Assembly: GCF_003918875.1 (NCBI RefSeq)
Contig: NW_025767202.1
Location: 310,001-374,000 of the forward strand
Reading direction: 5' to 3'
Origin: Haliotis rubra
Taxonomy: Eukaryota
DNA length: 64,000 nucleotides
This document shows positions 1,487 through 63,484 of the stretch, piece by piece. Under the pieces are notes generated by a model. The model did not search any database, was not told where the DNA came from, and saw only the letters and a list, made by a program, of their open reading frames with translations. Every line of letters starts with the position of its first letter. Positions within the stretch are counted from its first letter, which is position 1. A program made the position numbers and the translations under genes.

Positions 1487-1635
1487 ATGGCGCGCATGTG
1501 CATAGTTATACTGACAACACTCGCTGCCACTGCACTAGCAACGTTTGATGACTTGCAAGCATTTGACGATGTACAGCAGTATATTGACAGAGCAGAAACG
1601 ACTGTACAATCCTGTGGAACAGATGAATCATGCGC
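1487..1635 (+). CDS. Gene 1 exon 1 (signal peptide, start of N-terminal domain)
   Basis: gcaaccATGG context; hydrophobic leader; ends GC|GTGAGT, phase 2. Confidence 0.8.
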
Positions 1636-2149
1636 GTGAGTTACAACTTTCTCTTACACAGAGTTGTTACGGTTCTAGATAGTTTGTAGATAACTCGACC
1701 TCTCGTTTTCAGTTGTTGCTCTTGTTTACAGTTGGTTCTCGTGTAGATAGTTGTGGCTCCTTTTATTTGGTGTTGTTTCTGTAGACAGTTGTTGTTGATC
1801 GTGTAGACAGTTGTTGATAGTGTCCAAAGCTGTTTTCATGTAAATTGTTGTTGCAAATATTCTTGTCTATAGTTTTGCTCTAGTGTATAGTTAGGAGGCG
1901 GATAGCTAGTTGGTGTAATGAACATTTGTGCGAAAGGGTTCGTTCATTGCCATACCTCTCGATCATGATGAGCAGAGAATTGTTCCAAATAGGGATTGCC
2001 CACGAAACGTGGTTCAGGTCAAAAGTCGCGTAAACGTGAAAAGGTGATGTATATACTTTGTAAACGTCACTTTTTGAAGTTTGTTGAAAAATGAACGGTT
2101 CATCTGCTCAGCCAATGTACAAACCAAATCCCCGGAAATCCCTTTAATT

Positions 2150-3370
2150 TCACAATAACAATTTATCATAACTTAAATTGGGATAATCTATTACTGTCAT
2201 CCAGATAGATCAGTCTGTACCAACACGTTATACAATAATTAACACATAAGTAGGTTCTATACACTTTACCAAGTAAATCATTGGTCAATACCTTTTTAAT
2301 CAACATATAAATACCGTGTAAAGAAAACACTCTGTATCTTTTCAATATTTGCACGATAAGAGTAATCCCTCATTTTCATTCCAAATAACAATAATCATTA
2401 CACTATTTTGCTGCCAAATACTGTCCAAACTACATTCCGAGAAATATCTAGATACTCCTTCTTTGAGGTAAGAATAGGAAGAGGATCATTTCTAGTTTGT
2501 AGTGATAATGTTTTGACCAAATTACTCCAGATGTGGAGACAATTCCTAGATATTTATAGTAGGATAATACTTGCATCAATCCACTTGTTTACCATCATGC
2601 TTAAATATTCCTGTGTTTTAGATATCACCAGTTTCTAAAACCTTCTTTAGATTAACTTCGAGGCACCGTTTATACCAGTATCATTTTTAAGGGTAGGACA
2701 GTGTCATACACCGATGTTACATCATCTGCAAATAAGAGCAATTTGCTATCGTTTAGTAAATATCTAAACACAAACTCCTCTCAGTCCACATCTCTTCATT
2801 TAGACTAATTGCTCATGCAGATAAATAATAGAAGGCTTATCACACACCCTTGGCGAACTCCCCTTCTAACACCTTTTCCCATGCACATCTTTCATAACAA
2901 GTACAAACAAACAGTCAAGTGCCAAAATCTCTGAAAGCTCATTAAAATCTTGATTGAAGACATTACGTTATCACTTGATGAATAGTCATTTCTAAACTCT
3001 GCTTAACATTCATGTTGAACTTGTACAATGTACAAATCGGAATTTGATCCAAGAATAGACGTGAATATACTACCTAATAAGTTAACAAGGAAATACCACG
3101 GTAATTACTAAAGTCTTAACCATCTCCTTTACACACTATGGAGTAATCATACCAACATGCTAGTTATCGGAGAAAACACCACTAACCAATATTGCAATGA
3201 TAATAATAGAGGATACAATTGAGTTAGCATGTTTAAAACATTTCAGGATGTATTTCATGATATACCCGGGGATATGCTAAATTTGAGTGACTTGAATTCT
3301 CCTTTCTGATAAATACTTTATGATAAATCATCAGTACTGCCTCACGAAAGACATTCTCCATTATGATGAT
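2150..3370 (-). mobile_element. Degenerate LINE reverse-transcriptase fragment in gene 1 intron 1
   Basis: Minus-strand GVRQGC (~2845-2862) and LLFADDV (~2718-2740) motifs, with many stops. Confidence 0.65.
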
Positions 3371-3373
3371 GTG

Positions 3374-3518
3374 NNNNNNNNNNNNNNNNNNNNNNNNNNN
3401 NNNNNNNNNNNNNNNNNNNNNNNNNNNNNNNNNNNNNNNNNNNNNNNNNNNNNNNNNNNNNNNNNNNNNNNNNNNNNNNNNNNNNNNNNNNNNNNNNNNN
3501 NNNNNNNNNNNNNNNNNN
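3374..3518. other. Assembly gap (N run)
   Basis: 145 N. Confidence 1.
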
Positions 3519-4653
3519 CGCAGCATCCTTAAAATATATACACCACTTCTCTGCCCAGAAATGCATCTACTCATTAATTCTATGGAATCCCAGAAGGGAC
3601 GTTGTTGCAATATCGCGCGCGCTTTGGTTAGTTTTGACACTTTTTGCTTGTTTGTCGACAACACGACAATGTCCCTTATAGGATTCCATACATTACGGTT
3701 CTGCAGTAGTGCTTTTATTTTTAACTAAAATGTTTCATAATCACCATCTGCAACTGCTGTGCGAATCTCATCCGTGATCGCTTTCTTGAACTGTTGTCAT
3801 TTCTCTAAGTATCTCTTAGGAACAATTATGTCTACTCAAAATAACCTTTGTTCGACAAACTAACCGCACCTTTCATAACAATTTCTAACTGAACACAGCT
3901 AACGATCCTGACAATCCAAACGGAATCGTTTTCACTGAAGTCGTCCACACTGACAAGGGTCCTGACTAACGAAGCGCATTATGCAATTTTGTTTTACGAT
4001 ACAACACAGCTGAAACAAATATATACTCATCATATAGTCACAGTTGTACAATCGACTCTACTTTTAGCAGAGAATTCTTTTGAATGTGGAGAGGGTTTTG
4101 TTGCTTCTATTACCATACATACATAGAAATTCACACCAGAAAGGATGCAGGAGGCAGTATGTTAAAATTGAGGGAATTGTTGTCTTGTTTGTTTTGTTTT
4201 GTTTTTTTAAAACCACACTTTTTTAATTTTATTTTTTTATTTACCATTTTTTTACTTGTTTAAAGGTACAGTACATGTGGCCAACGTATGACATTGAAAG
4301 GTGCAATTGTGCTGATATACAAGATTACTATAAAAAAGTCTCAAATGGCATCAGATACCATGAGGGAATGTTACTTGTGTTACTTGTAACCAATTGTTAC
4401 TGTAACTCTCCTTGTAGAATGAGGACAATTTGTAGGGACATACAACTTCTTTATTATTTCTTTTTAAGCGACGTTCCGACATAGATTCTAATGTCGTTGT
4501 CAAGCAAGTGGTTGACTACGACTTTAGAATCTTTGTCGAAACGTCACCTATACAGAATAAAGACGTTGTATATCCATGAAAAATGTCCTCTTTCTTCATC
4601 CCCTCAACTTCTAGAATGCCAATCAAAGAAGTCAAACTTTCCTTGTGTTCCAG

Positions 4654-5063
4654 CTCCGAGCGGGTAGCCTCCAAAGTCCTCCAGAGCCTCTCCATGCTCC
4701 CTATCCCCACAGTTGAGGCCATCTACAACCACTTCCTCGGCAAGAAAGACGTCTTGACAATGTCCCAGTACATCGACGCAGTGTACTTGAGGCGGCTGGA
4801 GACGGAGTTGGGGAGCGACGTCAATGAGCTGGACAAGGTCATGAAGGTGTTCTTCAACACAAGCATCACGGCCTACTACGACAATGTCAGCAACAGCGGA
4901 AAGACGTTTGAGGAGGTAGCCTCAGAGTTACTCCGACAACTGCGACATGGTCTGAAGGTCTGGGACGGCAAGGCTGCAGACTTCTGGGACGCCATCAATA
5001 CGTTGAGAGCATACGGCAAAAGTTTCGATGTCATGCAGGCTTTAGAAGGTTACACCAAGAGAA
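4654..5063 (+). CDS. Gene 1 exon 2 (unrecognised helical domain)
   Basis: ttccag acceptor, A|GTAAGA donor; 410 nt, same as gene 2 exon 2; SERVASKVL...FWDAINTLRAY aligns with gene 2. Confidence 0.9.
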
Positions 5064-5211
5064 GTAAGAGAAACGTGCTATCCTCTACGCCTACTCTGCT
5101 GTTTGGGTCTATACTTTCCTCGTGTTGTGCCTCTACGAGCCACAGACGGCTTGCTATGTAGCTAGTTCTCGCAGGCGTATTTGGGTTAAAGTGTTGCTTA
5201 GATCAATTCGA

Positions 5212-5422
5212 TTGGTTGGTTGGTTGTTCAACGACGCAATATTAATGATATTATTAACTCAGCAATTTTCCAGCTATATGGCGGTGGTCTGTAAATAATC
5301 GAGCCTGGGCCAGACAATTCAGTGATCAACAGCATGAGCATCGATCAACACAACTGGGATACGATGACATGTGTCAACCTAGTCAGCAAGCTTGATCACC
5401 CGATCCCGTTACTTGCCTTTTA
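5212..5422 (-). mobile_element. SINE-like family B copy
   Basis: Matches 13448-13685 in reverse. Confidence 0.8.
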
Positions 5423-6142
5423 TTCGGAACTTCAAAGCTAAACGTCACTTCGAAAACGAACAACACTAGTGTCGTCATTGGTTCGACATACGAAGCTATT
5501 TTCTGCTTGTTTGTGCGATTGTTCCTTCTATTAACGTCACATTGAGTAACATTCCGGTGTAAGACCGAGTCTGACCTCTCGATCCGTTAGGGCGCCCCTT
5601 TGGACCAGCATAAGTTCCAGGGAATCTGTTCTTACCGAAATCACCACAGGGTAAACCGTAAAATCTGCACACTTAGTTGACACCTGAAGCGCATGCACAT
5701 ATTTTGTCATAGGGAGAGAATATGTCCATGCCAAGACAACGTGATACTGACGAAGCCAAGAGTACAGCCACACATAAATCGCAGGAATACCAACATTATG
5801 ATTGACAATGAAAAGTATAAATTTAAATGCATTTCAACAAAATTCATCGCATTGGCATCTCGTGAAACAAAATGGTTATATTGGTGACTTTTAGTTCCTG
5901 TAAATGACAACGTTATGGGTACTCTCCATAATCCCAAGACATGTCTTGATACAGGGTAAACCTCAGACTATTAAAACATTGTCAAATAGTCATACCAGGG
6001 TGATGCCAAAAACGGATATTCCAAATTCCTTCTTGCTAGAGACGGCAATAAACAAGATACATTTTGTACTGATGAAGCCTAATGTTTTATTATTTGTGTT
6101 GTTTTTTGCCTTTTAAAGACGGTTTATTTGCACCTGTTCCAG

Positions 6143-6406
6143 CAATCATACAACTTGATTTCGAGGGTGAACAGTCAGCCTACTGCCAGGGTCTCCTCAA
6201 TACAGCCACTGCACTTGGAAACATCGATGGCTTTCAGTATCTGCAGGGGCTCATCCTGGAGGCATGTCCCGGATCTAACATAACGCTGGACGGGTCGGAC
6301 GAGACTGTTGTACTGGGTCTTCAGACCACGACAACTACACAAGCATCGACTAGCACTACAGCAACCACCACTCCAAAACCTAATACAAGCGGAACCATTT
6401 ATAAAG
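6143..6406 (+). CDS. Gene 1 exon 3 (C-x26-C segment plus Thr-rich stalk)
   Basis: YCQGLL...GFQYLQGLILEAC followed by TTTTTQASTSTTATTTP. The donor G|GTTTTA is weak, so the 3' end is less certain. Confidence 0.75.
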
Positions 6407-6859
6407 GTTTTACACCTCTGGTTTCTGTTTTCTTCATTTGTAACTGAAGTCTGGGAGTAATGAGTTGAAATACGTTTTTATATGGTTTTTAAGATTCTTA
6501 TTTAAATACTTGTCTGTGCCTATAGTCCATACATGATCACCATTAAGTCATTCCTATAAAATACTTTTAACAAACGGAGCAAGATCCCGTGAACTTAAAC
6601 GATAAAACACGATTTCATATTAAGCGACTGGGTGTGAAAAGCAGAAGACTTTGACTTCATTTCTGTGGAGGTCAAACCCAAAAAACAAACAAATCAGCAA
6701 TGAATAAGCGGCCTTTTCATGGCAGTTTATGAAACCCTTCCAAGTTGGTGTTGATGCAAATCTGGGGCAACCTTTATGTCTAATGTCTTATTTTTGCAAT
6801 ACAAAGTAAGAACTCTTCATATTGACAAAGACGTGAAAGACGTTTCCTCTGGTTTCAAG

Positions 6860-7058
6860 GTAAGTGTGGAAGCAAGTTTGACTCCACCGTGTCCAACCAG
6901 TTGAGGAACACTCTGGTGTCGCTCCGGGTCATCAACGGGAAGACAGTGGCCAAATGAGAGTATAAGTTCCTGGCCTCCCTGATGAGGAGGGGTGGTCTCA
7001 TCTGTACAGCTAGTATCATCGACCCAACACACATCCTGACGGCAGCTCATTGTACAGA
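6860..7058 (+). CDS. Gene 1 exon 4 (activation site and catalytic His; contains TGA)
   Basis: KCGSKFDSTVSNQLRNTLVSLRVINGKTVAK*EYKFLASL...ILTAAHCT; donor GA|GTAAGC. Confidence 0.85.
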
Positions 7059-7321
7059 GTAAGCATGAACACACATGCCTACACACGTGCCTACAAGCAT
7101 GCCAACACACATACTTACACATAGGCTCACACACAAGCCTTTGTGTATGCCTTGACAGATCTAAACGCGTCTACACATATGACAACATACATACCTTGCC
7201 AGATAGATTCACACATGCCTACACACATGTGTCTCAAACATCTCAACGTACCTCTGTGCCTACACATACCCCAGTAGACAGTACCACACGACTGTATACG
7301 TCAGTACAGGTCAACACACAT

Positions 7322-8520
7322 AGCTGCATACATTTACTATGTACACGCCTACTCACATGTCAAGCACAGTTAAACACACATGCCTGCACACATGACTATG
7401 TACACGCCTACTCACATGTCAAGCACAGTTAAACACACATGCCTGCACACATGACTATGTACACGCCTACTCACATGTCAAACACAGTTCTACACACATG
7501 CCTGCACACATGACTATGTACACGCCTACACACATGACGAACACAGTTCAACACACATGCCTGCACACATGACTATGTACACGCCTACTCACAGGCCGAA
7601 CACAGTTCAACACACATGCCTGCACACATGACTTTGTACACAACTACTCACATGCCAAACACAGTTCAACACACATGCCTGCACACATGACTTTGTACAC
7701 AACTACTCACATGCCAAACACAGTTCAACACACATGCCTGCACACAAAACTATGTACACGCCTACACACATGCCGAACACAGTTCAACACACATGCCTGC
7801 ACACATGACTATGTACACGCCTACTCACAGGCCGAACACAGTTCAACACACATGCCTGCACACATGACTATGTACACGCCTACTCACATGCCAAACACAG
7901 TTCAACACACATGCCTGCACACATGACTATGTACACGCCTACTCACATGCCAAACACAGTTCAACACACATGCCTGCACACATGACTATGTACACGCCTA
8001 CTCACATGTGCCAAACACAGTTCTAACACATGCCTGCACATTTGACTATGTACGCGCCTACTCACATGCCGAACACAGTTCAACACACATGCCTGCACAC
8101 ATGACTATGTACACGCCTACTCACATGCCAAACACAGTTCAACACACATGCCTGCACACATGACTTTGTACACGCCTACTCACATGCCAAACACAGTTCA
8201 ACACACATGCCTGCACACATGACTTTGTACACGCCTACTCACATGCCAAACACAGTTCTACACACATGCCTGCACACATGACTATGTACACGCCTACTCA
8301 CATGCCAAACACAGTTCAACACACTTACCTGCACATTTGACTATGTACACGCCTACCCACATGTCAAGCACAGTTCAACACACTTACCTGCACATTTGAC
8401 TATGTACACGCCTACCCACATGCCAAACACAGTTCTACACACATGCCTGCACATTTGACTATGTACACGCCTACTCACATGCCAAACACAGTTCAACACA
8501 CATGCCTGCACACATGCCTA
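7322..8520. repeat. 59-bp CA-rich minisatellite (gene 1 intron 4)
   Basis: Unit acacacatgcctgcacacatgactatgtacacgcctactcacatgccaaacacagttca, about 20 copies. Confidence 0.95.
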
Positions 8521-8609
8521 CAATAGTTCCTCCAAACATACCTATAAACACGCATACTTTAAACATGACTACATCATGTCCCCATAATAGCAGTGGTTGT
8601 GGTGACGGC

Positions 8610-8686
8610 GTAGCAGTAGTAGTAGCAGTAGCACTAGCAGCAGCAACAGCAGCATTAGTAGCAGTAGCAGTAGCAGTAGCAGTAGC

Positions 8687-8720
<34 letters not shown>
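8610..8720. repeat. (GTA/GCA)n microsatellite
   Basis: Direct inspection. Confidence 0.9.
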
Positions 8721-8975
8721 TCAGCTATAGTGCAAATATAAGTTTTGGGTCATGTTAATGCGAGTTATAATAGAATTCCATTCTTCAATAGCGGCCGTAT
8801 TGTATTTTGCGGCCATTATAATTATTTGGGTGAAACCATATCATACATGGTTTGGAATGTCATAACCTACAAGAGAACCTGGTTTTATTGTGTTATCATT
8901 GAAAAATTCAACCTATGTCTGCACTACAAGGAGGTATAGATGTTACAGGTTATGAATGGTGTGTCTTTGTGTCAG

Positions 8976-9100
8976 AGGTTCAGCGGCAAGTGACCTGACT
9001 GTAGGAGTGGCTGAGTTTGACATCACTAAGTCAGATGGGGAAAGGGTATTTCAAGTGGAGAAAGTTAACGACCATCCGAGATACGACCGGACGAAAGTCA
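8976..9100 (+). CDS. Gene 1 exon 5
   Basis: LTVGVAEFDITKSDGERVFQVEKVNDHPRY; 125 nt, same as gene 2. Confidence 0.9.
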
Positions 9101-9555
9101 GTAAGTTTGTTGACTCAAAGTACACATATTTGGATCCAATAGTGATGTTTCGTTGATATTTACGATCAACTTGTGAAACTGGGTCAAAGCTTCATGCTGA
9201 TGCTGCTGAAACCCCACGTATCAGGGGACAGTTTGTAATCGTATTTTTCACTTATTCCAATGTTAAACATTTAATAACTTTCAATTTAGTTCGCGTTAAT
9301 ATTAACACTTGATAGCTAACCAACTGCTATACATAATTTACGTAAACGCGAACTCCATTATCTCGAGATAACCATGTTAGATCATTCCTCGGATCCTGTT
9401 TTCGTTGTTCAACCAGACGCTTTTATCGAACAATTCTTCATTCAAATAACACATATCATATCAAATCATATCAAATCATATCATATCATATCGTATCAAT
9501 AGATTCTCATCATTTCGAGTCATTGGTCATTGTATTGACGTCATGTTTCCCTCAG

Positions 9556-9711
9556 TTAACGACATCTCCATCCTGACGCTGACCGAGCCCATCCAGGGCG
9601 TGCCTAACGCTGAACCCATTTGCCTTCCTCGGTGGAAGCAGTGCAAGGATATTTCCAACCGGAAGTGTGTCGTTGCTGGATGGGGAGCCAAGGAAATAGT
9701 GGATAACACAC
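9556..9711 (+). CDS. Gene 1 exon 6 (catalytic Asp)
   Basis: NDISILTL...PICLP...CVVAGWG. Confidence 0.9.
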
Positions 9712-10258
9712 GTAAGAGTTCTGCAATGTATGGTTGAGTGTGTGAGTGAGTGAGCGAATTTAGCACTGCTGTGAACAATATTTTAACCGTGGGAATATTT
9801 ATCACGTGGGAAGAGGGAGGTAGTCACGACAGCTGTTCACGTCAAAGATCATGCTATCATTTGAGTAAAACCTACATAATTCAGATTCAGGTAGAGGTGA
9901 TAGGGGCGTTGCAGAGGTGACTGGTTGAAGTATTCTGATCGTGTTGAAAACACATAACTAAATAAGTTGGTGACAATCGCATTGAAATGAATATTTTATT
10001 AACAGCAACTGCAAAATATTTCCCAAATAATGTTCTGGCATTTTGATAATTACATGTCAACAAGCAGGTAACAGATCTGTATAGAGGCCAATAAAGGATT
10101 CGCCCTGGTACACTGTTCACGCTGACTATTTGAACCGCTGAATATGTGCTTTGTTGCTTTTGTCATAACTGCAGGACAGGCGGAAGCCCAAGAATAAAAC
10201 TAACAATCTATATTCCAGTTGTGAACCATTGTTTGATACTCTTGTATTTGCCATACAG

Positions 10259-10389
10259 TGGTTTTTCCTAATGCCCCCCGCGATGCCACTGTCAGGGCAT
10301 ATGCCGGTTCCAAGTGTCCAACTAACAGACCCGCGCCGAGTGACCTCAAAACTCAGATCTGTGCCGTTGGAAACTCTGATACCTGCAAC
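10259..10389 (+). CDS. Gene 1 exon 7
   Basis: ...KCPTN...TQICAVGNSDTCN|GTAAGT; 131 nt, same as gene 2. Confidence 0.9.
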
Positions 10390-10429
10390 GTAAGTATAAT
10401 ATACATTGCATGCCGTACGTAGAAGTCAG

Positions 10430-10436
10430 GCTTCCC

Positions 10437-10472
<36 letters not shown>

Positions 10473-12505
10473 TCTCCCCATCCTCCTCCTTCATCATCAT
10501 CATCATCATCCTCCTCGACATCATCTGGATCTTCCTTCATCATCATCACCATCACCCTCCTCCTCCTCCTTCTCATCATCATCATCATCTGGATCCTCCT
10601 CCTCCTCATCATCATCACCATCCTCCTCATCATATGGATCCTCCTCCTCGTCCTCATCATCATCATCTGGATCCTCATCCCTCATCATCAACACTCATCA
10701 CCCTCCGCATCATCATCTTGATCCTCCCCTTCAACCACCTGTTCCCCTTCCGCCTCATCATCATCATGATAATGATCATCACCCACCTCCTCTTTGTCAT
10801 CTCCATCATCACCACCCTCCTCCTTATCTTGATCCTCCCTTTCTTCCACTCTGTGCCCCTTCCTCCTCCTCACCATCATCACCACCCTCCTCCTTATCTT
10901 GATCCTCCCTTTTCCACCTGTGCCCCTTCCTCCTCCTCATCATCATCACCACCACTTGATCCTCCCTCTTCCCACACCTGTGCCTCCTTCCTCCTCATCA
11001 CCATCATCACCACCACCTCTCCCTCCTTATCATTGATCCTCCCTTCTACCACCTGTGCCCTTCCTCCTCATCACCATCATCACCACCCTCCTCCTTATCT
11101 TGATCCTCCCCTTCTTCCACCTGTGCCCCCTTCCTCCTCCTCATCACCATCATCACCACCCTCCTCCTTATCTTGATCCTCCCCTTCTTCCACCTGTGCC
11201 CCTTCCTCCTCATCACCATCATCACCACCCTCCTCCTTATCTTGATCCTCCCCTTTTCCACCTGTGCCTTCCTCCTCATCACCATCATCACCACCCTCCT
11301 CCTTATCTTGATCCTCCCCTTCTACCACCTGTGCCCCTTCCTCCTCATCACCATCATCACCACCCTCCTCCTTATCTTGATCCTCCCCTTCTTCCACCTG
11401 TGCCCTTCCTCCTCATCACCATCATCACCACCCTCCTCCTTATCTTGATCCTCCCTTCTTCCACCTGTGCCTTCCTCCTCCATCACCATCATCCCACCCT
11501 CCTCCTTATCTTGATCCTCCCCTTCTTCCTCCTGTGCCCCCTTCCTCCTCATCACCATCATCACCACCCTCCTCCTTATCTTGATCCTCCTTCCTACCAC
11601 CTGTGCCCCTTCCTCCTCATCACCATCATCACCATCACCTTCTTCATCATCCTCTTCGTCATCATCTTGGTCCTCATCCTCATCATCATCATCATCACCC
11701 TCCTCCTTATCTTGATCCTCCCCTTCTTCCACCTGTGCCCCTTCCTCCTCATCACCATCATCACCACCCTCCTCCTTATCTTGATCCTCCCCTTCTTCCA
11801 CCTGTGCCCCTTCCTCCTCATCACCATCATCACCACCCTCCTCCTTATCTTGATCCTCCTTTCTACCACCTGTGCCCTTCCTCCTCATCACCATCATCAC
11901 CACCCTCCTCCTTATCTTGATCCTCCCCTTCTACCACCTGTGCCCCTTCCTCCTCATCACCATCATCACCACCCTCCTCCTTATCTTGATCCTCCTTCTA
12001 CCACCTGTGCCCCTTCCTCCTTATCCACCATCATCACCACCCTCCTCCTTATCTTGATCCTCCCCTTCTTCACCTGTGCCTTCCTTCTCATCACCATCAT
12101 CACCACCCCTCCTCCTTATCTTGATCCTCCCCTTCTTCCACCTGTGCCCCTTCCTCCTCATCACCATCATCACCACCCTCCTCCTTATCTTCATCCTCCC
12201 CTTCTACCACCTGTGCCCCTTCCTCCTCATCACCATCATCACCACCCTCCTCCTTATCTTGATCCTCCCCTTCTTCCACCTGTGCCCCTTCCTCCTCATC
12301 ACCATCATAACCATCATCTTCATCATTAACGTTATGTCATCATCTTGGTCCTCCTCCTCCTCTTCATCATCATCACCCTGACCCTCCTCCTCATCATCAT
12401 CTTGAACCCTCCTTTTTCTTCTGTTCCCCTCATCATCATCATCTTCAACATCATCCTTCTGTTCCCCTTCATCATCACCATCTTCAACATCATCATCATC
12501 AACAA
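10430..12505. repeat. CAT/CCT microsatellite grading into a ~69-bp minisatellite (gene 1 intron 7)
   Basis: Unit cttgatcctccccttcttccacctgtgccccttcctcctcatcaccatcatcaccaccctcctccttat. Confidence 0.95.
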
Positions 12506-12659
12506 CAAAGTCTTCGTGATCTAAATTCGTACCATTATCTTATGGTTGTTATGTTAATTCTTAGGGTAAGACATAATGAACAATGAGCAATCGTGTGAAG
12601 TACAGAACTGACACACATGTAAATTGGCTTTGGCATATTATTCTTTTCCATCTCAACAG

Positions 12660-12821
12660 GGTGACTCGGGCGGGCCAATATTTTGCACCTACGGCAAGAA
12701 ATGGGTTCAGTGCGGAATCACATCATTTGGGCCTAGAGAGTGCAACTTGGAAGGAACTAATGGTATCTACACCAACCTGGCCAAATACAACACCTGGATC
12801 AAGAACATACTTTTATCATAG
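12660..12821 (+). CDS. Gene 1 exon 8 (catalytic Ser)
   Basis: GDSGGPIFC...GITSFG...GIYTNLAKYNTWI, stop TAG. Confidence 0.9.
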   Translation, partial: GDSGGPIFCTYGKKWVQCGITSFGPRECNLEGTNGIYTNLAKYNTWIKNILLS

Positions 12822-14135: not shown

Positions 14136-14310
14136 GGGGCGGTGGGGTAGCCTAGTGGTTGAAGCGTTCGCTCGTCACGCCGAAGACCCGGGTTCGATTC
14201 CCCACATGGGTACAATGTGTGAAGCCCATTTCTGGTGTCCCCCGCCGTGATATAGCTGGAATATTGCTAAAAGCGGCGTAAAACCAAACTCACTCACTCA
14301 CTCACTCACT
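14136..14310 (+). mobile_element. SINE family A (tRNA-Asp-like head), full length
   Basis: A box tagcctagtgg, B box ggttcgattcc, gtcacgc anticodon-like loop, (CACT)n tail, TSD cactgccgtac. Confidence 0.92.
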
Positions 14311-14819: not shown

Positions 14820-15046
14820 ATGGCGTTCTGCGGTGCAGTCATAGTGCTGTTGTTGGCAGCGGTTTCGCCGAGTCATCAGGTTGGCATCATTATTCCAAAT
14901 CCATCCCCCTCTCAACCCACGGAAACGTTTGATGATGCTAGTGCTATGACCGATGTCGAAAGCTACAGTGAGAGCGCAGAAAGTGATTTGCATTACTGCA
15001 AAATTCAAAGCTTCTATTTTAGAGATTTGAGCTATGAAGATTGCAT
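14820..15046 (+). CDS. Gene 2 exon 1
   Basis: Signal peptide; AT|GTGAGT donor, phase 2. Confidence 0.85.
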
Positions 15047-18000
15047 GTGAGTATATATTAAAACAGTATTTTGTGAACTTGTTTCCATCTCATGTGTATG
15101 AGTGTAAATGTTTTAAGATACTTATAGAAAACAACTTTTCGTTAAGAAAGGTAACTCTTTATAGAACATGCGCTTTATGATGTGTGCTACATATACAATG
15201 CTGAGTCAGCTGTCTGGTAGCGATCAATCAAGTATCCTTAACAAACAGCCTTCCGCAGTAAGCACATAACCTTCTGAAATAAATCTCCATTAACAGACGG
15301 TTATAACATAAGCCTTTCTAAAACACACACATGAACCCTCATAGTTAAACAGCCTCCAACAATAATAGCATAACCATTCTGTGACAGACAGACTTCCGCA
15401 GTAGCGAGGTGAAAACATTCTGTTGCGGGGTTCAACAGTTCCCACTCATTTCAGCAGTAGCCTTTCTAAAACACCGATTTCAGCAATAATAATTTTGAAA
15501 ACATTCTGCTGTGATAGCAAAAGTGCAATAATTTTGAACACGACGTCAAACTTCGTTCCATCCCTTCTCACCTCCCTTTAATCCACCTCAACCACCTCCC
15601 TTTAATCCACCTCACCCCACCTCCCTTAAATCCACCTCATCCCACCTCCCTTTAATCCATTACATCCCACCTCCCTTTAATCCACCACATCCCACCTCCC
15701 TTTAATTCACCACATCCCACCTCCCTTTAATTCACCACATCCCACCTCCCTTTAATTCACCACATCCCACCTCCCTTTAATCCATTACATCCCACCTCCC
15801 TTTAATTCACCACCTCCCATCTCCCTTTAATCCTCCTCATCTAGCTCCCTTTAATCCACCACATCCCACCTTCCTTTAATCCACCTCACCCCACCTCCCT
15901 TTAATCAACTTCGTCCCTCCTCCCTTTAATCCTCCTCAGCCAGCTCCCTTTAATCTGAAATTTCATAACTTCAGCGCCGAGCGTGTCGGCACAAAGATAC
16001 TGTCAAGTTTCGACTCTCTCCCCACTGCAACCATTGAGTCAGTGTACGCCAACTCCCTGTCTGATGAGGAGGACACAAACACAACGCTGTCCTACATTGA
16101 CCGGATGTACTACACGTGGTTGGCTCAGCAATTTGGCGCTCCTATCAATGACCTGGACAACGTACTCAGGACATATTTTGGTACAAGGGTGACGAAATTC
16201 ACCGCCAAAATATTAACTGCAAGGAAACCATTCCGCCAGATAGAGGGTGAGATTCTGGCGGAAGAAAGGGCTCGGCTCAACATCGACAACACGGCTGCCG
16301 CGGCGTTCTGGAACGGCGTCAACACCCTCCGAGGATACCGTCGGCCTATCATTCGATACGGTGTCCAGTGCTACATCAGGCACTGTATGTGTAACCCTCC
16401 TTCTAGGAATAACATTCATCTTATATTTACCCATGAGGACTTTACACCACTAACAATCGCTTCACGTTTATAAACAGCTGGAGTAGCGGTGGGGTAGCCT
16501 AATGGTTGCAAGCTTGAAATTAGATGTATCAAATAATACTGATTAATATCTATGTATCCAGTAGAATGAGTTGATCTCAAAAGTCTGGACTAGTTATTGC
16601 ACTAAGTTGCACAATAGGACGGAACCCAGTCAGCAGGAAACGAGACTGCTTTGTAATCAATGTTTTGACTTGGCGGTTATAACATAATCCTTTCCCCAAA
16701 AAATAGCTAAAATGTATAGAGGTCATATTTAATGAAACTGGCTATAGCTCTTTCTAGTCACCACACTGTGTTCCCCCCTTGTGGGGGCGTGGGGTAGCCT
16801 AATGGTTAAAGCGCCGAAGACCCGGGTTCGAATCAGTCAGTCAGTCTCCCCCCCCCCCCCTGTACCTAAATCTACCATTTCCTGACCATTATGTGATATA
16901 CCAACCCAAATTTTGGGTGCAGAGATTTCGATTTCTTCTAAAGGTACAAGCAATCGCATATTCAAAATATAATTGGTCCTTGGAAGTTATTCAACATATA
17001 CCCACTTCACTTTTTCACTCATCTTGCCATTGCTTACGTTTAACCTCTAGAACTAGGTAGGTGGCACAACATTCCCCCAGACGAGACAATTTGTAAACTC
17101 TGCTGCATGTGCAAGGTTGGAGATGAATTTCATTACACTCTTCTCTGCCCTCTCATGAAACATCTTCGGAAAATGTATGTCCCAAACTTCTATGGTAAAA
17201 AAAAAATATTATCTTAAAATTTTAAAAGTTGTGTAACAAATACAAAAAATCTGCACATTCTGTAAAATCATTATGCAAACCATAAAATAATTATTTCATG
17301 TAAACCATCCCGCCACATTTAATAGACTAAGTATATATGTGCCTCTTATCCCGGCCTGAGCATAGCTTATATTTGGATAAAACTTTCTCATAAAAGTCGA
17401 GAGAGATTCTTGCACTTGTTAGGGTTGAGACCCATCCGATATTCGAACGCAGACGTACAGAATAAGGCAAATACAAACACAGATCTGTTTCATAACCGCG
17501 GAGCACACCAGGTCCACCATCAACCGGAAACCAATCAACACTGTCCCTTTTGTTTCAGTCTATGCCAGAATCGGTAGGTATGGACGACGTAGATTCTGCC
17601 GGATGTTGGGTCGCCTGGCTCGTGGGATGTACTACCGGCGGGGATACAGTCGACTACTAGGGGTCCTGGGAAGGGCGTGTCCTAACATTGCCTCTTTCCT
17701 CAGTCAAGTCTCACCGACCAGACCACCACAAACTCCACGTCCAACAACAAGACCGACCACAACTACAAGAACCACAACGACAACCACCACCACCACGTCA
17801 ACGACCACGACCACCACGACTACCACCACACCTGCACTAAAATGTACGATCATAGACAAAACATATCGTCCTCAGTCTAATATTCCAGGAGGCACCACTG
17901 TTACATATTCAGAAATAGATTCTTGAACCTAAAACTGAAAGAAAATATTACTCTTCAGAAACATACTCTAATTTCATATATATGATTTGCTTCCTGAAGC

Positions 18001-33395: not shown

Positions 33396-33560
33396 GGGGC
33401 GGTGGGGTAGCCTAATGGTTAAAGCGTTGGCTCGTCACGCCGAAGACCCGGGTTCGAATCCCCACATGGGTACAATGTGTGAAGCCCATTTCTGGTGTCC
33501 CCCGCCGTGATGTTGTTGGAATAATGCTAAAAGCGGCGTAAAACCAAAACTCAGACAGTC
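33396..33560 (+). mobile_element. SINE A, full length
   Basis: TSD gtgtactggat. Confidence 0.92.
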
Positions 33561-34935: not shown

Positions 34936-34976
34936 TGACGTCACGGGCACCTGTTGCCTGCTGTTGTGGCTATAAG
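34936..34976 (+). promoter_or_regulatory. Gene 3 proximal promoter: CRE (TGACGTCA), E-box (CACCTG), TATA
   Basis: Motifs and spacing are the same upstream of gene 4. Confidence 0.7.
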
Positions 34977-35005
34977 AAGAGATCGACAATCTGAAGATCT
35001 TCATC

Positions 35006-35112
35006 ATGAGGTCGTTGCTGTTGCTTTGTGTGCTGGTCCTCCTGACCTCTGTCCCTGTTGGGGGGCGGTGGCGAGGAGGAGGATACAAAATAGTCGCTGG
35101 CTACAAACAAAC
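35006..35112 (+). CDS. Gene 3 exon 1
   Basis: Signal peptide then [17 protein letters not shown]; AC|GTAAGT; paralogous to 62568. Confidence 0.85.
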
Positions 35113-38100: not shown

Positions 38101-41100
38101 GTCAGTTGTGTAAATGGGATGCCATTGGAAGGGCAGGACATGCTTACCCATTGCTAGGTCAGTTGTGTTAATGGGATGCCATTGGAAGGGCAGGACATGC
38201 TTACCCATTGCTAGGTCAGTTGTGTAAGTGGGATGTCATTGGAAGGGCAGGACATGTTTTTCCATTTCGCGAACACCTGGTGTCATCACTGATTTTCAGC
38301 GCTCCATTCATATAATTTTCACAACTATTTTTCCCTTCACACCAAACGGAAACCAAACTATTTCTGAGAATAGTTAAGGCTGGGTATTCTCTTACACTAT
38401 ATTTGTTTAACGCCGCACTCAGCAATATCCAGCTATCATAAGGGACCATACAATATGAGGATTGATATTATGAGCAACGGTTCACGCTGTCGGGTAGCTA
38501 TGCTGCCCATCCAACCTGACATCGATTACAATCGGCATAGGATGCCTGGGATTTATTTCATTGTATTTATTACTCTCGGGGATGTTGTGCTGGAGAATAT
38601 ACCCCTGCTCTGTAACATTATTCTCACGGGTGAAGAGTCGTCTAAATCAGCGCTGTTCCCTGTACAGAGTTGCGTCCCTTAAATGTTACAGGATCTAATG
38701 ATTGGGTCATCCATGGTTATTGCACGGAATACCCTCACACATGGAACGTCTTTTGATGTGTAGGTCTATGTCAGTGTCTTCAGTTCTTTAACACTATGGT
38801 CAACTGGTGAACTGTTTACATCGCCATTAACTCATTCGTGAGAGAAATATCTCCAATTTTATTTTTCGGAGATATTTTAAAAAATAAAAATAATCTTAAC
38901 ATGAGCGCAATTTTAGGGAATCAGCTATTCACGCGATTACAAGTATTCGCTGTATCAGAGAAATATCCATCGCTGGTGTGGAAATAAATTTTAAATAGCA
39001 GATTTTGGCCACAATGTGAAAACAGTCATGTACAATCTATATTCACTCTTTTCACAAGTTCCTATCACCATAGATACGACGAAATATCCATCGCTCGTGT
39101 GGTAATAAAGTTTAAAAAGCAGATTTTGGCCACAATGTGAAAACAGCCATGTACAACTTATATCCACTATTTTCATCATAGATACGACGATGTCGATAAT
39201 GACAACGATGGCAGCCACCCCGACCACCACAGCAGCCATTCAGGGTTCACTCATGATATCTACAACCAGATTCCGGACGACATCCTCGGGGATGCTCTCT
39301 GTGTCGTCTTCAACGCCCATTCTAAAGTCCGTCTTAAAGCCGTTGACCGCATCTATGAACGATATGGGTCAAATAAGAGTATCGATGTCACATCGGTTAT
39401 ACAACGGCTAATGCAGTCCGACTTCATGAGAGGTCTTGTCCGTCTACGAAAACAAGGTTAAACCCCTTTTACATCCATTCAATGTTTCATTTGAATACTA
39501 ATTGAAGTTTGTTTTGATTTTGAAGGAAATATCTACGAACATAATGTCACAGCTCTCAATGTTGAAATCCAGTCTTGTTTTCACAGGTCTATGAAGGGAA
39601 CAGAATCAAATACGATTATTGTGTGTGTCAGTAGCCGAAGCAATAGCCGTAGCTACAGTCTCAGCAGTCGCAGTAGCAGTACATGTATCAATTACTATCA
39701 TTAGTAGTAGCTATAGTTGTTGTTATTATTGTTGTTGTTGAGCTTGATGATGTTGACGTTGTTGTTGTTGTTACAATCCATATCATTCCTATAATCACAG
39801 CTTTCAGAGACATGTCCCATGCTGGACAGGCTAAGTTCTGCACTCTACTACGACACATGCCCGACACATACAACACCTGTGGCTTCCACAACCTCATCAA
39901 GGTGATGGTCGGCCAGTGCGTCCCCACACCCCAATCCTCCCAGGCGCCCCTGCCTGCAACACCAGTGACAGCTGAATCAACTACAGCAGATGCAGCAACA
40001 CCCATCACGACATCTACACGCACTCTAAGTTAGTTAAGACGTTGTTTTCCATATATACTTGTTATAATACTGTAAGATTAATACTGTCATGTCTTGATGA
40101 AACGAAGCATCTGTTGACAAGAACACAGACGTTTGTGGATAGCCTTGTTTCGGAATCGGTTGCTATGGATAAGATGTAATATTCACATGAGATTTTTGTA
40201 GCCTTTTAAGCTTGACTATGAAATAATTTGTACAGTGTATGACAAAACAGATACTTTTTTATGATGTTTATCATTCTCAAGATTGCAGGGACATAAGTTA
40301 CATCCAAAGTGTCGTCAGGACAACAAGAATTGTTGGAGGGATCACAGCACAGCAGGGCGTCTTCGACTCCTTCGCCTCCCTCAACACAGGATTCGGGATT
40401 TTTCCAACATGTGGAGCAACAATCATCGACTCCTGTACTGTTCTGACAGCTGCCCATTGTGTCTAGTAAGTGAATAATCCTTCTACATCCCATTGTGTCC
40501 AATCATTTTATCCCTGTTCTTCTGCTCATTGTCTCCAGTCGGAGCATCCATGTTGCAATTAGCCATTGTGTCCAATCATATCGTCCATGTTCTACTAACC
40601 ATTGTCTCCAGTCAGATCATCCATGTTCTACTGCTCATTGTCTCCAGTCAGGGCATCCATGTTCTACTGCTCATTGTCTCCAGTCAGAGCATCCATGTTC
40701 TACTGCTCATTGTGTCCAGTCAGACCATCCATGTTCTACTGCTCATTGTCTCCAGTCAGACCATCCATGTTCTACTGCCTATAGTGTCTAGTCAGACCAT
40801 CCATGTTCTACTGCTCATTGTGTCCAGTCAGACCATCCATGTTCTACTGCTCATTGTCTCCAGTCAGAGCATCCATGTTCTACTGCCTATTGTGTCCAGT
40901 CAGACCATCCATGTTCTACTGCTCATTGTGTCCAGTCAGACCATCCATGTTCTACTGCTCATTGTGTCCAGTCAGACCATCCATCCACGTCCTGTTCTAC
41001 TGCCTATAGTGTCTAGTCAGACCATCCATGTTCTACTGCTCATTGTCTCCAGTCAGAGCATCCATGTTCTACTGCTCATTGTCTCCAGTCAGATCATCCA

Positions 41101-53956: not shown

Positions 53957-54016
53957 TTACGACCGTGGTGTGCTTCTTCTTCGGGTGATTCCGGTGGACC
54001 GTTGTACTGCCAGTAT
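53957..54016 (+). pseudogene. Orphan partial copy of protease exon 8 ([11 protein letters not shown]) with a broken acceptor
   Basis: ttacgaccgtggtgtgcttcttcttcg-GGTGATTCCGGTGGACCGTTGTACTGCCAG matches 52713-52740 joined to 52919-52948. Confidence 0.8.
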
Positions 54017-54049
54017 ATGTTTACATATGTTAAGGCAGTTGTTTACACT

Positions 54050-54205: not shown

Positions 54206-54265
54206 GTTGTTTACACATCTTAAGGCAGTTGTTTGTTTAGTAATTGGAACAGGTAAAAAGAAGAA

Positions 54266-54429
54266 GACTGACTGAGTTTGGTTTTACGCCGCTTTCAGCA
54301 ATATTCCAGCAACATCACGGCGGAGGACACCAGAAATGGGCTTCACACATTGTACCCATGTGGGGATTCGAACCCGGGTCTTCGGCGTGACGAGCCAACG
54401 CTTTAACCATTAGGCTACCCCACCGCCCC
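54266..54429 (-). mobile_element. SINE A, full length
   Basis: TSD aaaagaagaaga. Confidence 0.92.
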
Positions 54430-55189
54430 AAAAGAAGAAGATGAAGAAGAAGAATAAGAAGTTTATTCTGGTCTAGCAATACATGATTGGTATACATCCA
54501 AGTAACAGTCGCCCAGCCAGCTAGGTCCTATGAGACACAACTGTCATTAAGTTCAATATATGACAAAAGCACTATATGAGTGCTAAATACTTACATACAG
54601 ATAAAAAAAGTCAAGATAAAATATCAATTGATGTAGGAGTGGTGAATAATGTACGTTTAAACATAGTTGTAACAAGTGCAGTTACGTAACTCTATAAATC
54701 GCCGTGCTGCATGATAAATGTGGTTTGATTTGAAATGGATAGTTGGCTGAAATTTGGATTTTCAGCAATTGCGAGATTCAAAAGTGGAGTTTATAACTCA
54801 GAATATAGATTGCAGGCGATAAGAAAATGCGCCTCGTCCTCAACATTAGAAGAATTACAATAGTTACATATACACTGATGTAAGGGAGATTTTAGAACTT
54901 AAACCGACCAAGTTTTACTTCTAAGGTGAGTGTGCGACATCTATATTTTGCTAAATAACTTAGAAATATGGGCCCTGTCATTTACTGCAGTAACATAATA
55001 AGAAGTACTAAAAAGTTTTTAAAAGACGGTAATTTCTTAACTTGTGACCATTTGCTTCCCCCCTATAAAATAAAGGCAATTGTAAATTCTGCAAAAAAAG
55101 ATTCTCACCATAATCCCATGACAAAGGTTTTATTAAAGAACACCCCTGAGTAAGATGTGTAGGTTTACGCCTGTTATCATAATGAACTG

Positions 55190-57467: not shown

Positions 57468-59200
57468 ATGGCGAGGAGAAGACTTTCATTGAGGCGGGGA
57501 TGGCAGGTAGTGTGTATACATGCAGCTGGCATGTCCTTCAAGGCCATCGGGCGTCAGTTTGGTTACCGCAACTCTGTCATCAGTAGACCGGAAACACCAA
57601 GGTGCTGTCAAGGATCGATCAGGGCCCAGGAAGGCCCTTCCAGCATTAAGATCGCAATGTGTCCCGTTACATGAGGTGTGAACCCTTGACTACGTGCACT
57701 TGTTTGTAACAATCCTTGATGCCCAACAGACGTTTGTCAACCAGGGTTGTGCGAAACTGTCTCAAGGCTTTTGGCCTGATGTCCCGAGGGATCGTCACAC
57801 GTCCATCTCTGACATCTGAACGTCAAGGGCAGTCTGCAGTGGTGTTGTGCTCTTTGGCGCTGGAATCTTCGAACCAGGAGATGGATCTATAAGTCAGACG
57901 AAAGCAGGTTCCAGCTTCATGTTACGATTGGAGGAGGAACAGTCATCCTACTGTTCCCTTTGATGGAGACGTAGCGTCTCCCATGACATTAACTTGGCCA
58001 GGGTGGCATGAGTTTAAGTTGACCAGGGTGACAAGACATTAAGTTGACCAGGGTGACATGACATTAAGTTGACCAGGGTGACATGACATTAAGTTGACCA
58101 GGGTGACATGACATTAACTTGGCAAGGGTGACATGACATTAAGTTGACCAGGGTGACATGACATTAAGTTGACCAGGGTGACATGACATTAAGTTGACCA
58201 GGGTGACATGACTTTAAGTTGACCAGGGTGACATGACATCAAGTTGACCAGGGTGACATGACTTTAAGTTGACCAGGGTGACATGACATCAAGTTGACCA
58301 GGGTGACATGACATTAAGTTGACCAGGGTGACATGACATTAAGTTGACCAGGGTGACATGACATTAAGTTGACCAGGGTGACATGACATTAACTTGGCCA
58401 GGGTGACATGACATTAAGTTGACCAGGGTGACATGACATTAAGTTGACCAGGGTGACATGACTTTAAGTTGACCAGGGTGACATGACATCAAGTTGACCA
58501 GGGTGACATGACTTTAAGTTGACCAGGGTGACATGACATCAAGTTGACCAGGGTGACATGACATTAAGTTGACCAGGGTGACATGACATTAACTTGGCCA
58601 GGGTGACATGACATTAAGTTGGCCAGGGTGACATGACTTTAAGTTGGCCAGGGTGACATGACATTAAGTTGACCAGGGTGGCATGACATTAAGTTGACCA
58701 GGGTGGAATGACTTTTAGTTGATCAGGGTGACATGACATTAAGTTGACCAGGGTGACATGACATTAAGTTGACCAGGGTGACATGACTTTAAGTTGACCA
58801 GGGTGACATGACATTAAGTTGACCAGGGTGACATGACTTTAAGTTGACCAGGGTGACATGACATTAAGTTGACCAGGGTGACATGACATTAAGTTGACCA
58901 GGGTGGCATGACATTAAGTTGACCAGGGTGGCATGCCATTAACTTGACCAGGGTGACATGACATTAAGTTGACCAGGGTGACATGACATTAAGTTGGCCA
59001 GGGTGACATGACTTTAAGTTGACCAGGGTGGCATGACTTTAAGTTGACCAGGGTGGCATGACTTTAAGCTGATCAGGGTGACATGACATTAAGTTGACCA
59101 GGGTGACATGACTTTAAGTTGACCAGGGTTACATCCTTCTGGCCAGCGCTACATCACGGACAGTCGTGGTCAGTTTGTGGTGCCTCATTTTGATAAACCA
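57468..59200 (+). mobile_element. Degenerate Tc1 transposase fossil interrupted by a minisatellite
   Basis: MARRRLS...GMSFKAIGRQFG; SDESRF at ~57893-57911; after the array GQRYI...VVPHFD. Confidence 0.65.
57982..59130. repeat. 25-bp minisatellite (about 45 copies)
   Basis: Unit gacatgacattaagttgaccagggt. Confidence 0.97.
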
Positions 59201-61540: not shown

Positions 61541-61780
61541 ATGAGTGAGTTTAGTTTTACGCCACACTCAGCAATATTCCAGCTATATGGCGGCGGTCTG
61601 TAAATAATCGAGTAACCAGACAACCCAGTCATCAACAACATAAGCATCGATCTGCGCAATTGGGAACCGATGACATGCGTCAACCAAGTCAGCGAGCCTG
61701 ACCACCCGATCCCGTTAGTCACCTCTTACGACAAGCATGGGTTACTGAAGATCAATATTCTAACCCGGACCTTCACGGGT
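61541..61780 (-). mobile_element. SINE-like family B, full length
   Basis: Ends ...cttcacgggt; TSD-like tttaagaga. Confidence 0.88.
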
Positions 61781-62492
61781 ATTTTAAGAGAAGCATGGTG
61801 GCGACAGCATTTGCACCCTGTTATCGAGAATGAGCGTTAATCACAATTTGACAATAGGTGATAGATTCAAACATGTCGTTTTACCTTACGCATCGAAATA
61901 TGTGTCATTAGGTTGATTTGATGTGGTTAGCTGTCCGCCTGATCGGCCTGGCCAGCCAGACGGATTCGTTGTCTGTCTCAAAAGAGTTTTATCGTTCAAG
62001 ATGTACAGTGCAAATGTACAAATTAAAGTGTATAATGAAAGTGGCGAATACATTTTTGTTGATATCAGGCCCACATTACCATTTACCAGCTGTTCCATGT
62101 CGATTGGTCTACCACACCCTTTCCTGGCCATCCAACAGGTGCATCGTGTGTACTGAAACAGACAACTAACAGAAACAGGTGGTTACTATTTGGATACAGA
62201 TGCAAGTCAATAGAAGAACGCCGGTGACGTTGTGAACAGACAGCATGGTGTCCCTCAGTACAACATGTACATTCTCAAGAAGATGCATAGCGTCATGTCC
62301 CTGAATCGATATCAGGCCTTGCCGCGTGTGGTCAGCATATATACTGTATATATATAATACAAATACATGTTTTAAAGAACATATATATATCCAATGTACA
62401 TATGATTGTATTTGTTAAACAATGTGTAAGTCCTACCACGTTTTATGAGCTACAATTCGAATATGTTTCCATAAGAAGTCCACCTTGGATGA

Positions 62493-62534
62493 TGACGTCA
62501 CAAGCACCTGTTCGGAATTATAGAGGCTATATAT
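62493..62534 (+). promoter_or_regulatory. Gene 4 proximal promoter: CRE, E-box, TATA
   Basis: TGACGTCA-4nt-CACCTG; TATA starts 28 nt after the last CRE base, as in gene 3. Confidence 0.7.
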
Positions 62535-62567
62535 TGCCGAGGGGTTGAAGATCTGATCATCTTCATC

Positions 62568-63484
62568 ATGAGGTCGTTGCTGGTGCTGTGTTTGCTGGTC
62601 CTCCTGACTATTGCCCATGCTGGCGGACGCCGTCGCCGTGGCCGATACAGTGGCTATAGGTCGGGGGGGGAAGTTACCGTCTTCCAGGAAGTGGAGGATA
62701 CAGACGACCGTAAGTGTGTCTCTCTATCATTATACATGGAACCTGTTTGATCGCCTTAGACAGAACATATATTTTCGTATTTGATTAAATGTATCATGGA
62801 GTCTTCAGAAAAACAGAAAAACTCTAAGGCATGTCAGGTTCCCCCTAAACATAAGGTGAAGAATTTCAAGTTATCTCTTATTGTATGCTTGCTATCCTGC
62901 GTATTTACATGTGTGTGTGTGTGTGCGTGCGCGCGTGATGTGTGCGTGATGTCGACATGAACTAAATGCATGCTAAAGACTTTGTGTGTGGCATAATCTG
63001 TCAGTTTAGGTATTTAGATAAAGTGTATGCACCTGTGTTTGAACTTTGGTAAATGTATAGATCAGGGTTCAGCCTGGTCTTGTGTTGGGCAATGAATTCC
63101 ATTTCAACATGCCGCTGGTGCCAGTTAAATCAAATTTCTTAAATCAAAACCTGAAATGATATTTGTTCACTTTGTTGAACGACAGCTACTACTACGACGA
63201 TGACCACCACTACAACAACCACGGCAACTACCCTTATTATGTAACAGCCCCTCCTACACCGCCTCCTACCGCAACACCGTTCCCGTCGGATCTCTACAAT
63301 CAGCTTCCAGAGGACATTCTTGGCAGCGCTCTCTGCATCATGTTAGGAACCGATATCAGCGCCCGTTACAGCGCTTATCATAACATAATAAATTCCTATG
63401 GGTGGAACTCTAGATACATCTTACAAACTATACAACAGTTGATGACTACATTCAAGCAAAGTCTCAGTGTTTTACGCGATGAAG
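62568..63484 (+). CDS. Gene 4 (5' part only; paralog of gene 3), exons 62568-62709 and 63186-63484, apparent 1-nt indel in a G run
   Basis: Signal MRSLLVLCLLVLLTIAHA. Exon 2 DLYNQLPEDILGSALC matches gene 3 [16 protein letters not shown]. The promoter is shared with gene 3. Protease exons are presumably beyond the window. Confidence 0.8.

Follow-up and report, generated by a model that had tools for sequence, protein, structure and literature searches.

What kind of module stands ahead of the catalytic domain in a tandem group of serine proteases from the abalone Haliotis rubra? Accessory modules are the main basis on which S1A proteases are classified, and the well-known ones (clip, CUB, LDLa, SRCR, and kringle) are rich in Cys and mostly of beta structure. 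The locus considered here lies on contig NW_025767202.1 (positions 310,001 to 374,000; RefSeq assembly GCF_003918875.1), and the window, i.e., the whole stretch of 64,000 nucleotides (nt) that was analyzed, holds four tandem paralogs on the + strand (Table 1). The encoded order is signal peptide, helical head, Thr-rich stalk, short Cys-bearing activation segment, and S1A protease, and it is highly probable that these genes specify tandem secreted mosaic S1A zymogens. The head appears to be an uncatalogued helical module, for which both function and fold assignment are predictions.

Coordinate splicing yielded eight exons each for genes 1 to 3 and exons 1 and 2 of gene 4 within the window. All introns of genes 1 to 3 are GT-AG, and their phases form the same series (2, 1, 1, 2, 1, 1, and 0) in the three paralogs, as had been noted in an earlier examination of the letters without database searches (the sequence-only reading). 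The three complete 8-exon paralogs and the start of a fourth that it described were recovered in exon count, phases, and fourth start, but gene 1 is interrupted by a TGA codon. Domain hidden Markov models (HMMs) detected no further copies of the domains on either strand of the window, apart from an exon 8 relic near 53975. The joining of exons 1 to 3 to the protease exons, assumed in that reading, is borne out by a second species, since the H. asinina protein XP_067652480.1 has a signal peptide, basic tail, head, stalk, and complete protease in a single chain. As this orthologue (head 61% and protease 83% identical to those of gene 4) carries the same fusion, the latter is not a splicing artefact; the support consists of two genome annotations together with phase conservation.

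The catalytic part contains His57, Asp102, and Ser195 in order, within AAHC, D-I/V-x-I-L, and GDSGG motifs, in genes 1 to 3 and the orthologue. Both full-length records scanned (P0004, which is XP_046585190.1, and P0005) matched Pfam Trypsin PF00089 (109 and 160 bits; cut-off, 20.6), and gene 2 exon 8 matched a PDB tryptase at E 3.5e-12. Position 189 is occupied by Asp in genes 1, 2, and 4, as in a trypsin-type pocket, and by Asn in gene 3, the specificity of which is therefore probably not trypsin-like. One Cys lies 15 to 21 residues ahead of the Arg-Ile/Val activation site (R/VING, R/VVNG, or R/IVGG, with the slash marking the cleavage point). Given that the protease domains of genes 1 to 3 and the orthologue hold an odd number of Cys (11 each), this pro-region Cys would complete the disulfide pairing. 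The PICLP, PVCLP, and PACLA motifs cited previously are present at the Cys122 sites; the Cys1-Cys122 tether, called established at that time, is instead deduced from conservation and Cys parity (11+1), and such a bond would keep the head attached after activation. Alignment also suggests one extra disulfide specific to each type, with putative pairing: genes 1 and 2 have two added Cys, and genes 3 and 4 and the orthologue have one Cys within DSCT and another at the C-terminal end. The Thr/Pro-rich stalks span 37 to 72 amino acids (aa) with 27 to 60% Thr. Judged by hydropathy only, all four genes have an N-terminal hydrophobic segment and no later one, and the proteins are therefore not membrane-anchored.

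The head occurs in a long form of ~218 aa (genes 1 and 2, where it starts already in exon 1 with a Cys pair) and a short form of ~108 aa (genes 3 and 4). The label "Cys-poor" attached to it earlier is an understatement, as the five domains contain 4, 5, 4, 4, and 4 Cys, i.e., 4 to 5 conserved Cys per domain. Exon 2 of genes 1 and 2 has the reported length (410 nt in both) and consensus, with 32% identity, and the pattern D.YNQ.P.DILG.ALC is common to genes 3 and 4 (38% identity). Similarity within each type was very strong (z of 38 to 96 against shuffles). Between types, the score of gene 2 against gene 4 was reached by 1 of 1000 shuffles and that of gene 1 against gene 3 by 375 of 1000. The short-type HMM placed gene 2 above all 500 shuffles; the gene 1 score was reached by 75 of 500 and that of P0002, which is without exon 3, by 111 of 500. 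With the long-type HMM, the number of shuffles (of 500) attaining the true score was 1 for gene 3, 0 for gene 4, and 4 for the orthologue. Moreover, profile-profile alignment of the two types (E 0.008; probability, 4.9%) had its confident columns in the exon-3 part. Because cross-type similarity concentrates there, the shared core appears to be the Cys-flanked helical hairpin of exon 3. A motif proposed for this exon in genes 1 to 3, relaxed by permitting Leu at the Phe/Tyr position after inspection of gene 4 and the orthologue, matched exactly three sites in the window and none in 200 triplet-shuffled windows, and it also matches gene 4 and the orthologue. The view of genes 3 and 4 as carrying a shorter version of the head of genes 1 and 2 is thus upheld by the exon-3 link but finds little support outside exon 3; homology of the long and short exon-2 forms is plausible from these comparisons.

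Helical amphipathicity as high as observed was reached by 0, 1, 6, 14, and 42 of 1000 shuffles in five domains and by 223 of 1000 in the H. asinina domain, so that the amphipathic patterning claimed for the head applies, to varying degree, to five of six domains but not to the last. The exon-3 segments differ in net charge (gene 2, +12; gene 1, -5; gene 3, +2). Strongly basic Arg/Gly/Tyr segments are found in gene 2 exon 3 and in the N-tail of the orthologue (+12 and +7), and genes 3 and 4 and the orthologue begin with Gly/Arg/Tyr-rich tails. The ratios of nonsynonymous to synonymous substitution rates (dN/dS) in the head, 0.27 for genes 1 and 2 (dS near saturation) and 0.40 for genes 3 and 4 (65 codons), are rough owing to high dS, and they indicate that the head is under purifying selection. 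In three pairs, head identity was below protease identity (32 versus 55%, 42 versus 60%, and 61 versus 83%).

Searches for a known family gave no assignment for the head. Pfam returned no family at curated cut-offs for nine exon pieces, four full records (Trypsin apart), and four alignment members; NCBIfam returned nothing at cut-off for six proteins; and no head match to PDB sequences was better than E 0.059. The description of an unrecognized N-terminal module therefore agrees with the Pfam and NCBIfam results, in which no known S1A-associated domain was matched. Profiles and folding were built on two to four sequences, with low to moderate model confidence. AlphaFold2 predicted an all-helical structure for exon 2 of the long form alone (predicted local distance difference test [pLDDT], 47) and five helices, again all-helical, for the whole short form (pLDDT, 69; predicted template modeling score, 0.57); the head is thus predicted, at that low to moderate confidence, to be mainly or all helical. 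Against 48161 chains (VIA), the long exon-2 model reached at best Z 6.2 (root mean square deviation, 3.2; 66 aligned residues; none at Z ≥ 8) and the short-form model Z 4.8 (2.9; 77 aligned; none at Z ≥ 5), and comparisons made with models of pLDDT 47 and 69 demonstrate neither a different nor a new fold. Foldseek gave 0 of 127 matches at E ≤ 0.001 for the short form (best Z on re-alignment, 4.0), and the ESM Atlas gave only weak look-alikes without names (best template modeling score, 0.38). Titles and abstract openings in the literature, and full text searched for motifs and accessions, contained no description of these proteins, with subscription papers mostly outside this coverage.

Relatives of the head were confined to Haliotis records and one further protein, P0002, in databases thin on molluscs. 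When 1.84 billion representatives were scanned with an HMM built from exon 2 of both long-type genes, three proteins were returned, i.e., XP_046585188.1, P0002 (a gene-2-like exon 2 at 76% identity), and P0003. The last of these, a Mycena repeat protein (E 6e-30), was rejected, as its score was summed over repeats and its best single stretch reached 7.6 bits. The corresponding profile of genes 3 and 4 matched 2 of 423 candidates, gene 4 itself (XP_046585190.1) and H. asinina XP_067652480.1 (E 8e-15). Word-index searches matched none of 1863 candidates for gene 2 exon 2 and none of 22 for exon 4. Since even genes 2 and 3 of H. rubra itself were not retrieved from the databases searched, "Haliotis only" states the minimum range; the epithet "lineage-specific" fits the matches obtained but must be read against the few mollusc proteins that these databases hold. 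As judged from sequence, the proteins are a lineage-restricted variant of a well-known protease architecture, belonging to S1A but to neither the clip nor the transmembrane subgroup.

Two of the four genes carry lesions as assembled. RefSeq XP_046585188.1 ("uncharacterized protein LOC124292179," Haliotis rubra), essentially 100% identical to gene 1 exons 1 to 4, terminates at the gene 1 TGA. Beyond it, 224 codons follow without another stop, and nonsynonymous differences from gene 2 (pN, 0.30) are well below synonymous ones (pS, 0.77), which points to a recent lesion or to an error in the consensus. Exon 1 of gene 4 ends in phase 1 as assembled, and exon 2 is therefore out of frame. Read in another frame, the last codons of exon 1 match the end of the corresponding segment in the orthologue, and the exon 1 donor lines up with the phase-2 donor of gene 3; a run of eight G at 62663-62670 is the likely site of the shift. 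The RefSeq model XP_046585190.1, which contains gene 4 exon 2 at 100% and carries Asp189, bypasses the frameshift by starting in a transposase fragment at 57468-57599, a Tc1/mariner-like helix-turn-helix (HTH_38, E 4e-4). Beyond the window, this model is without the exon in which Cys122 and Asp102 would lie, probably because of another error in assembly or annotation. According to PMC6774278, the H. rubra genome was assembled from Nanopore and Illumina reads combined, and this published assembly is presumably the one from which the window comes. The RefSeq names and models are thus misleading here, with gene 1 truncated and uncharacterized and gene 4 begun in a transposon fragment.

In S1A zymogens, cleavage takes place at Arg15-Ile/Val16, and the pro-chain is held by Cys1-Cys122. 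We tentatively read the abalone proteins as mosaic zymogens, probably of gut or mucus, in which the tethered head has a targeting role, and give this a probability of about 0.45. A trypsin-like enzyme would cut Arg15-Ile/Val16, the pro-region would remain bound through the Cys1-Cys122 disulfide, and O-glycans would stiffen the Thr/Pro stalk, so that the head would travel with the active enzyme on a stiff stalk. As a disulfide-stapled binding module, it may then anchor the enzyme on a surface such as gut mucus, food particles, or microbes, with paralogs combining different head surfaces with different specificity pockets (Asp189 or Asn189). Targeting was rated highest because of the long spacer, the faster divergence of the head than of the protease, as is often the case in binding modules, and the strongly basic surfaces of some paralogs; a mucin-like spacer of 37 to 72 aa would fit reach better than active-site occlusion. 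Several points weigh against it. The heads of genes 1 and 4 are acidic (-13 and -4) and thus do not imply that all heads bind a polyanion; opposite charges of pro-region and protease would suit an intramolecular role equally; the head models are weak; and gut expression is a guess. A bolder version is doubtful. In it, the head originated in abalones, has a new helical fold stapled by disulfides, and works as a swappable targeting module, the basic variants of which would dock on polyanionic algal wall polysaccharides, on mucus, or on bacterial surfaces and keep the tethered protease there.

Known systems offer partial parallels. Tethered mosaic S1A zymogens such as horseshoe-crab proclotting enzyme and the Drosophila Stubble/clip proteases are alike in secretion, an accessory domain, a Ser/Thr-rich linker, an Arg-Ile/Val activation site, the His/Asp/Ser triad, and the Cys1-Cys122 tether (putative in abalone), and RefSeq calls the H. 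asinina orthologue "proclotting enzyme-like." Clip-domain proteases differ in that the abalone head has no clip match in Pfam scans and lacks the six-Cys pattern, having 4 to 5 Cys over 108 to 218 aa in a predicted all-helical domain; saposin-like proteins, also with six Cys, differ in this count as well. Type II transmembrane serine proteases (TMPRSS9 and enteropeptidase) share an S1A domain on a glycosylated stalk (glycosylation being predicted here), but the abalone proteins have a cleavable-type signal peptide, no internal hydrophobic segment, and no SEA, LDLa, SRCR, or CUB match in Pfam. The RefSeq name of gene 4, "transmembrane protease serine 9-like," reflects catalytic-domain similarity alone. 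The digestive chymotrypsin-like protease of Haliotis rufescens is likewise a secreted abalone S1A protease; it is reportedly a simple pre-pro-enzyme with a short propeptide and neither head nor stalk, and it is set apart by this description only. By analogy, cellulases with carbohydrate-binding modules (PMC7560691) have a binding head on an O-glycosylated Thr/Pro linker that localizes a hydrolase; they differ in catalytic class, the abalone head has no carbohydrate-binding module match, and binding by it is putative.

The main rival, albeit an unlikely one, is that the head serves as an intramolecular inhibitor or folding chaperone, clamping its own protease electrostatically until shed or displaced in the right milieu. 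Basic prosegments act in this way on acidic proteases, e.g., in pepsinogen, and the best evidence for such a role is the opposite net charges of pro-region and protease in the four pairs available (-11/+4, +11/-18, +4/+1, and +6/-18), with the most basic segments on the most acidic proteases (isoelectric point, 4.05) and with basic sites that could allow shedding, KR of gene 1 and the RRR that both gene 2 and the orthologue contain. However, four non-independent pairs are few, the Arg-Ile/Val switch already keeps S1A zymogens off, and a long stalk separates head and protease. Pfam scans returned no match to I29, the cathepsin-type inhibitory prosegment. The same basic sites enter another proposal, which we regard as quite improbable, that convertase-type cleavage liberates basic segments, or the head as a whole, which would then act on their own in mucus as adhesive or antimicrobial-type peptides co-delivered with the protease. 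The amphipathic, Cys-flanked exon-3 segment of gene 2, which starts at RRR, and the Gly/Arg/Tyr-rich N-tails of genes 3 and 4 and the orthologue would suit released peptides; yet gene 1 has an acidic counterpart of this segment and gene 3 a nearly neutral one, and no convertase-type site was found in gene 3.

Less probable than an inhibitor, though ahead of released peptides, is a strongly diverged known small helical fold (saposin-like, lysin/sp18-like, or another disulfide-bonded bundle), which would make these ordinary mosaic proteases. The small number of sequences behind profiles and models, the folding of the long form from exon 2 alone, and the scarcity of molluscs in databases leave room for it, but the Pfam, NCBIfam, and PDB results and a Cys count unlike the six-Cys saposin or clip patterns argue otherwise. 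Finally, exons 1 to 3 might be a separate gene or unspliced to the protease exons, as could be read from the RefSeq models, which split gene 1 at its stop and mis-start gene 4. Such an artefact is very improbable in view of the compatible phases in three paralogs, the RefSeq models of genes 1 and 4, in which exon 3 runs on into exon 4, the complete fusion in H. asinina, and the lack of any other signal-peptide exon for the protease exons in the models.

Leads to the tissue in which the putative targeting module would operate came from promoters and published data. The block TGACGTCA-n4-CACCTG precedes genes 3 and 4 and is absent from genes 1 and 2; TGACGTCA occurs three times in the window, two of them in these blocks. 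The block may be a cyclic AMP response element plus E-box, as in secretory-cell genes, a reading that we treat as a lead only. Abalone digestive S1 proteases are known (PMC4527670 and PMC3688566); one is the H. rufescens enzyme mentioned above, which the digestive system expresses (Degnan, Groppe and Morse 1995, cited in PMC4527670). A shell-matrix role is disfavored, as term searches of the main text and supplement files of the H. laevigata shell proteome (PMC6003135) turned up no S1 motif. Its 27 supplement files, read with long cells shortened, contained 0 occurrences of GDSGG, NDISIL, NDVAIL, VAEFD, and NTLVSLR, although these genes may be missing from the database that the authors searched; for DILG there were 24 occurrences, spread over 5 files, and those inspected concerned unrelated proteins. 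The three supplement files of PMC12070547 had 0 matches for the accessions.

Table 1. Genes, exons, sites, and promoter blocks of the protease locus (positions in the window)
Feature	Position	Strand	Basis or remark
Gene 1, long type	1487..12821	+	exon splicing; exons 1-4 vs XP_046585188.1; catalytic residues
Gene 1 exons	1487-1635, 4654-5063, 6119-6406, 6860-7058, 8976-9100, 9556-9711, 10259-10389, 12660-12821	+	
Gene 1 exon 3 acceptor			RefSeq version ~25 nt further downstream than 6119
In-frame TGA, gene 1 exon 4	6955..6957	+	codon 315, nine residues past activation site
Gene 2, long type, intact, 564 aa	14820..21543	+	exon splicing; catalytic residues
Gene 2 exons	14820-15046, 15975-16384, 17559-17843, 18000-18195, 18707-18831, 19357-19515, 19692-19822, 21382-21543	+	
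Gene 2 sites	activation R/VVNG 18065; His57 18185; Asp102 19362; Asp189 19811; Ser195 21388	+	
Gene 2 exon 2, core of long helical domain	15975..16384	+	gene 1 counterpart 4654-5063
Gene 2 exon 3, Cys-flanked helical motif, then Thr-rich stalk	17559..17843	+	motif net charge +12 over 41 aa
Gene 3, short type, intact, 454 aa	35006..53077	+	exon splicing; catalytic residues
Gene 3 exons	35006-35112, 39182-39456, 39801-40028, 40282-40465, 45610-45728, 48392-48532, 50949-51100, 52919-53077	+	
Gene 3 sites	activation R/IVGG 40329	+	Asn at position 189
Gene 3 short helical domain, 4 Cys	39249..39919	+	exon 2 part 39249-39456, exon 3 part 39801-39919
Gene 4, short type	62568..63484	+	exon 1 62568-62709 (frameshifted as assembled), exon 2 63186-63484; remainder outside window
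Promoter block TGACGTCA-n4-CACCTG, gene 3	34936..34955	+	upstream of gene 3, ~25 nt before TATA-like box
Promoter block TGACGTCA-n4-CACCTG, gene 4	62493..62512	+	upstream of gene 4; 18/20 nt identical to gene 3 block; TATA-like box shortly after

The window also holds repeats and mobile elements. The exon 8 relic (53975-54013) lies ~900 nt past gene 3 as an orphan fragment of a duplicated or lost paralog. On the - strand, a 399-codon open frame at 23504-24700 encodes a long interspersed nuclear element (LINE)-type reverse transcriptase (RVT_1, E 1.5e-7), and 27436-27981 holds a DDE_1 transposase fragment (E 1.4e-8). By eye, a short interspersed repeat of ~160 nt was seen on both strands (14148-14310, 33395-33550, 44845-45010, 52740-52905, and 54270-54430), as were large, mostly intronic minisatellite arrays (7350-8520, 10440-12480, 19830-20940, 35740-38260, 40520-44720, 45730-47400, and 58000-59130), to which the 18-kb span of gene 3 is largely due. 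Intron 6 of gene 3 contains a long inverted repeat (48914-49240/49370-49710, by eye), perhaps a miniature inverted-repeat element, and intron 1 of gene 1 an assembly gap of 145 N (3374-3518).

Set beside the well-known S1A modules, with their many Cys and mostly beta structure, an all-helical head would be a further class of module in these proteases and perhaps a further fold. It would be one more module on a very modular enzyme family; it opens no long-standing question, and its reach may be a single snail family. Should the new-fold targeting version be true, the head would be a protease counterpart of the carbohydrate-binding module, tuned by paralog to algal diet or mucosal defense. The locus offers a tractable case of a young domain in two size classes and with opposite charges on one scaffold, with a possible bearing on digestion or mucosal defense in a farmed mollusc.

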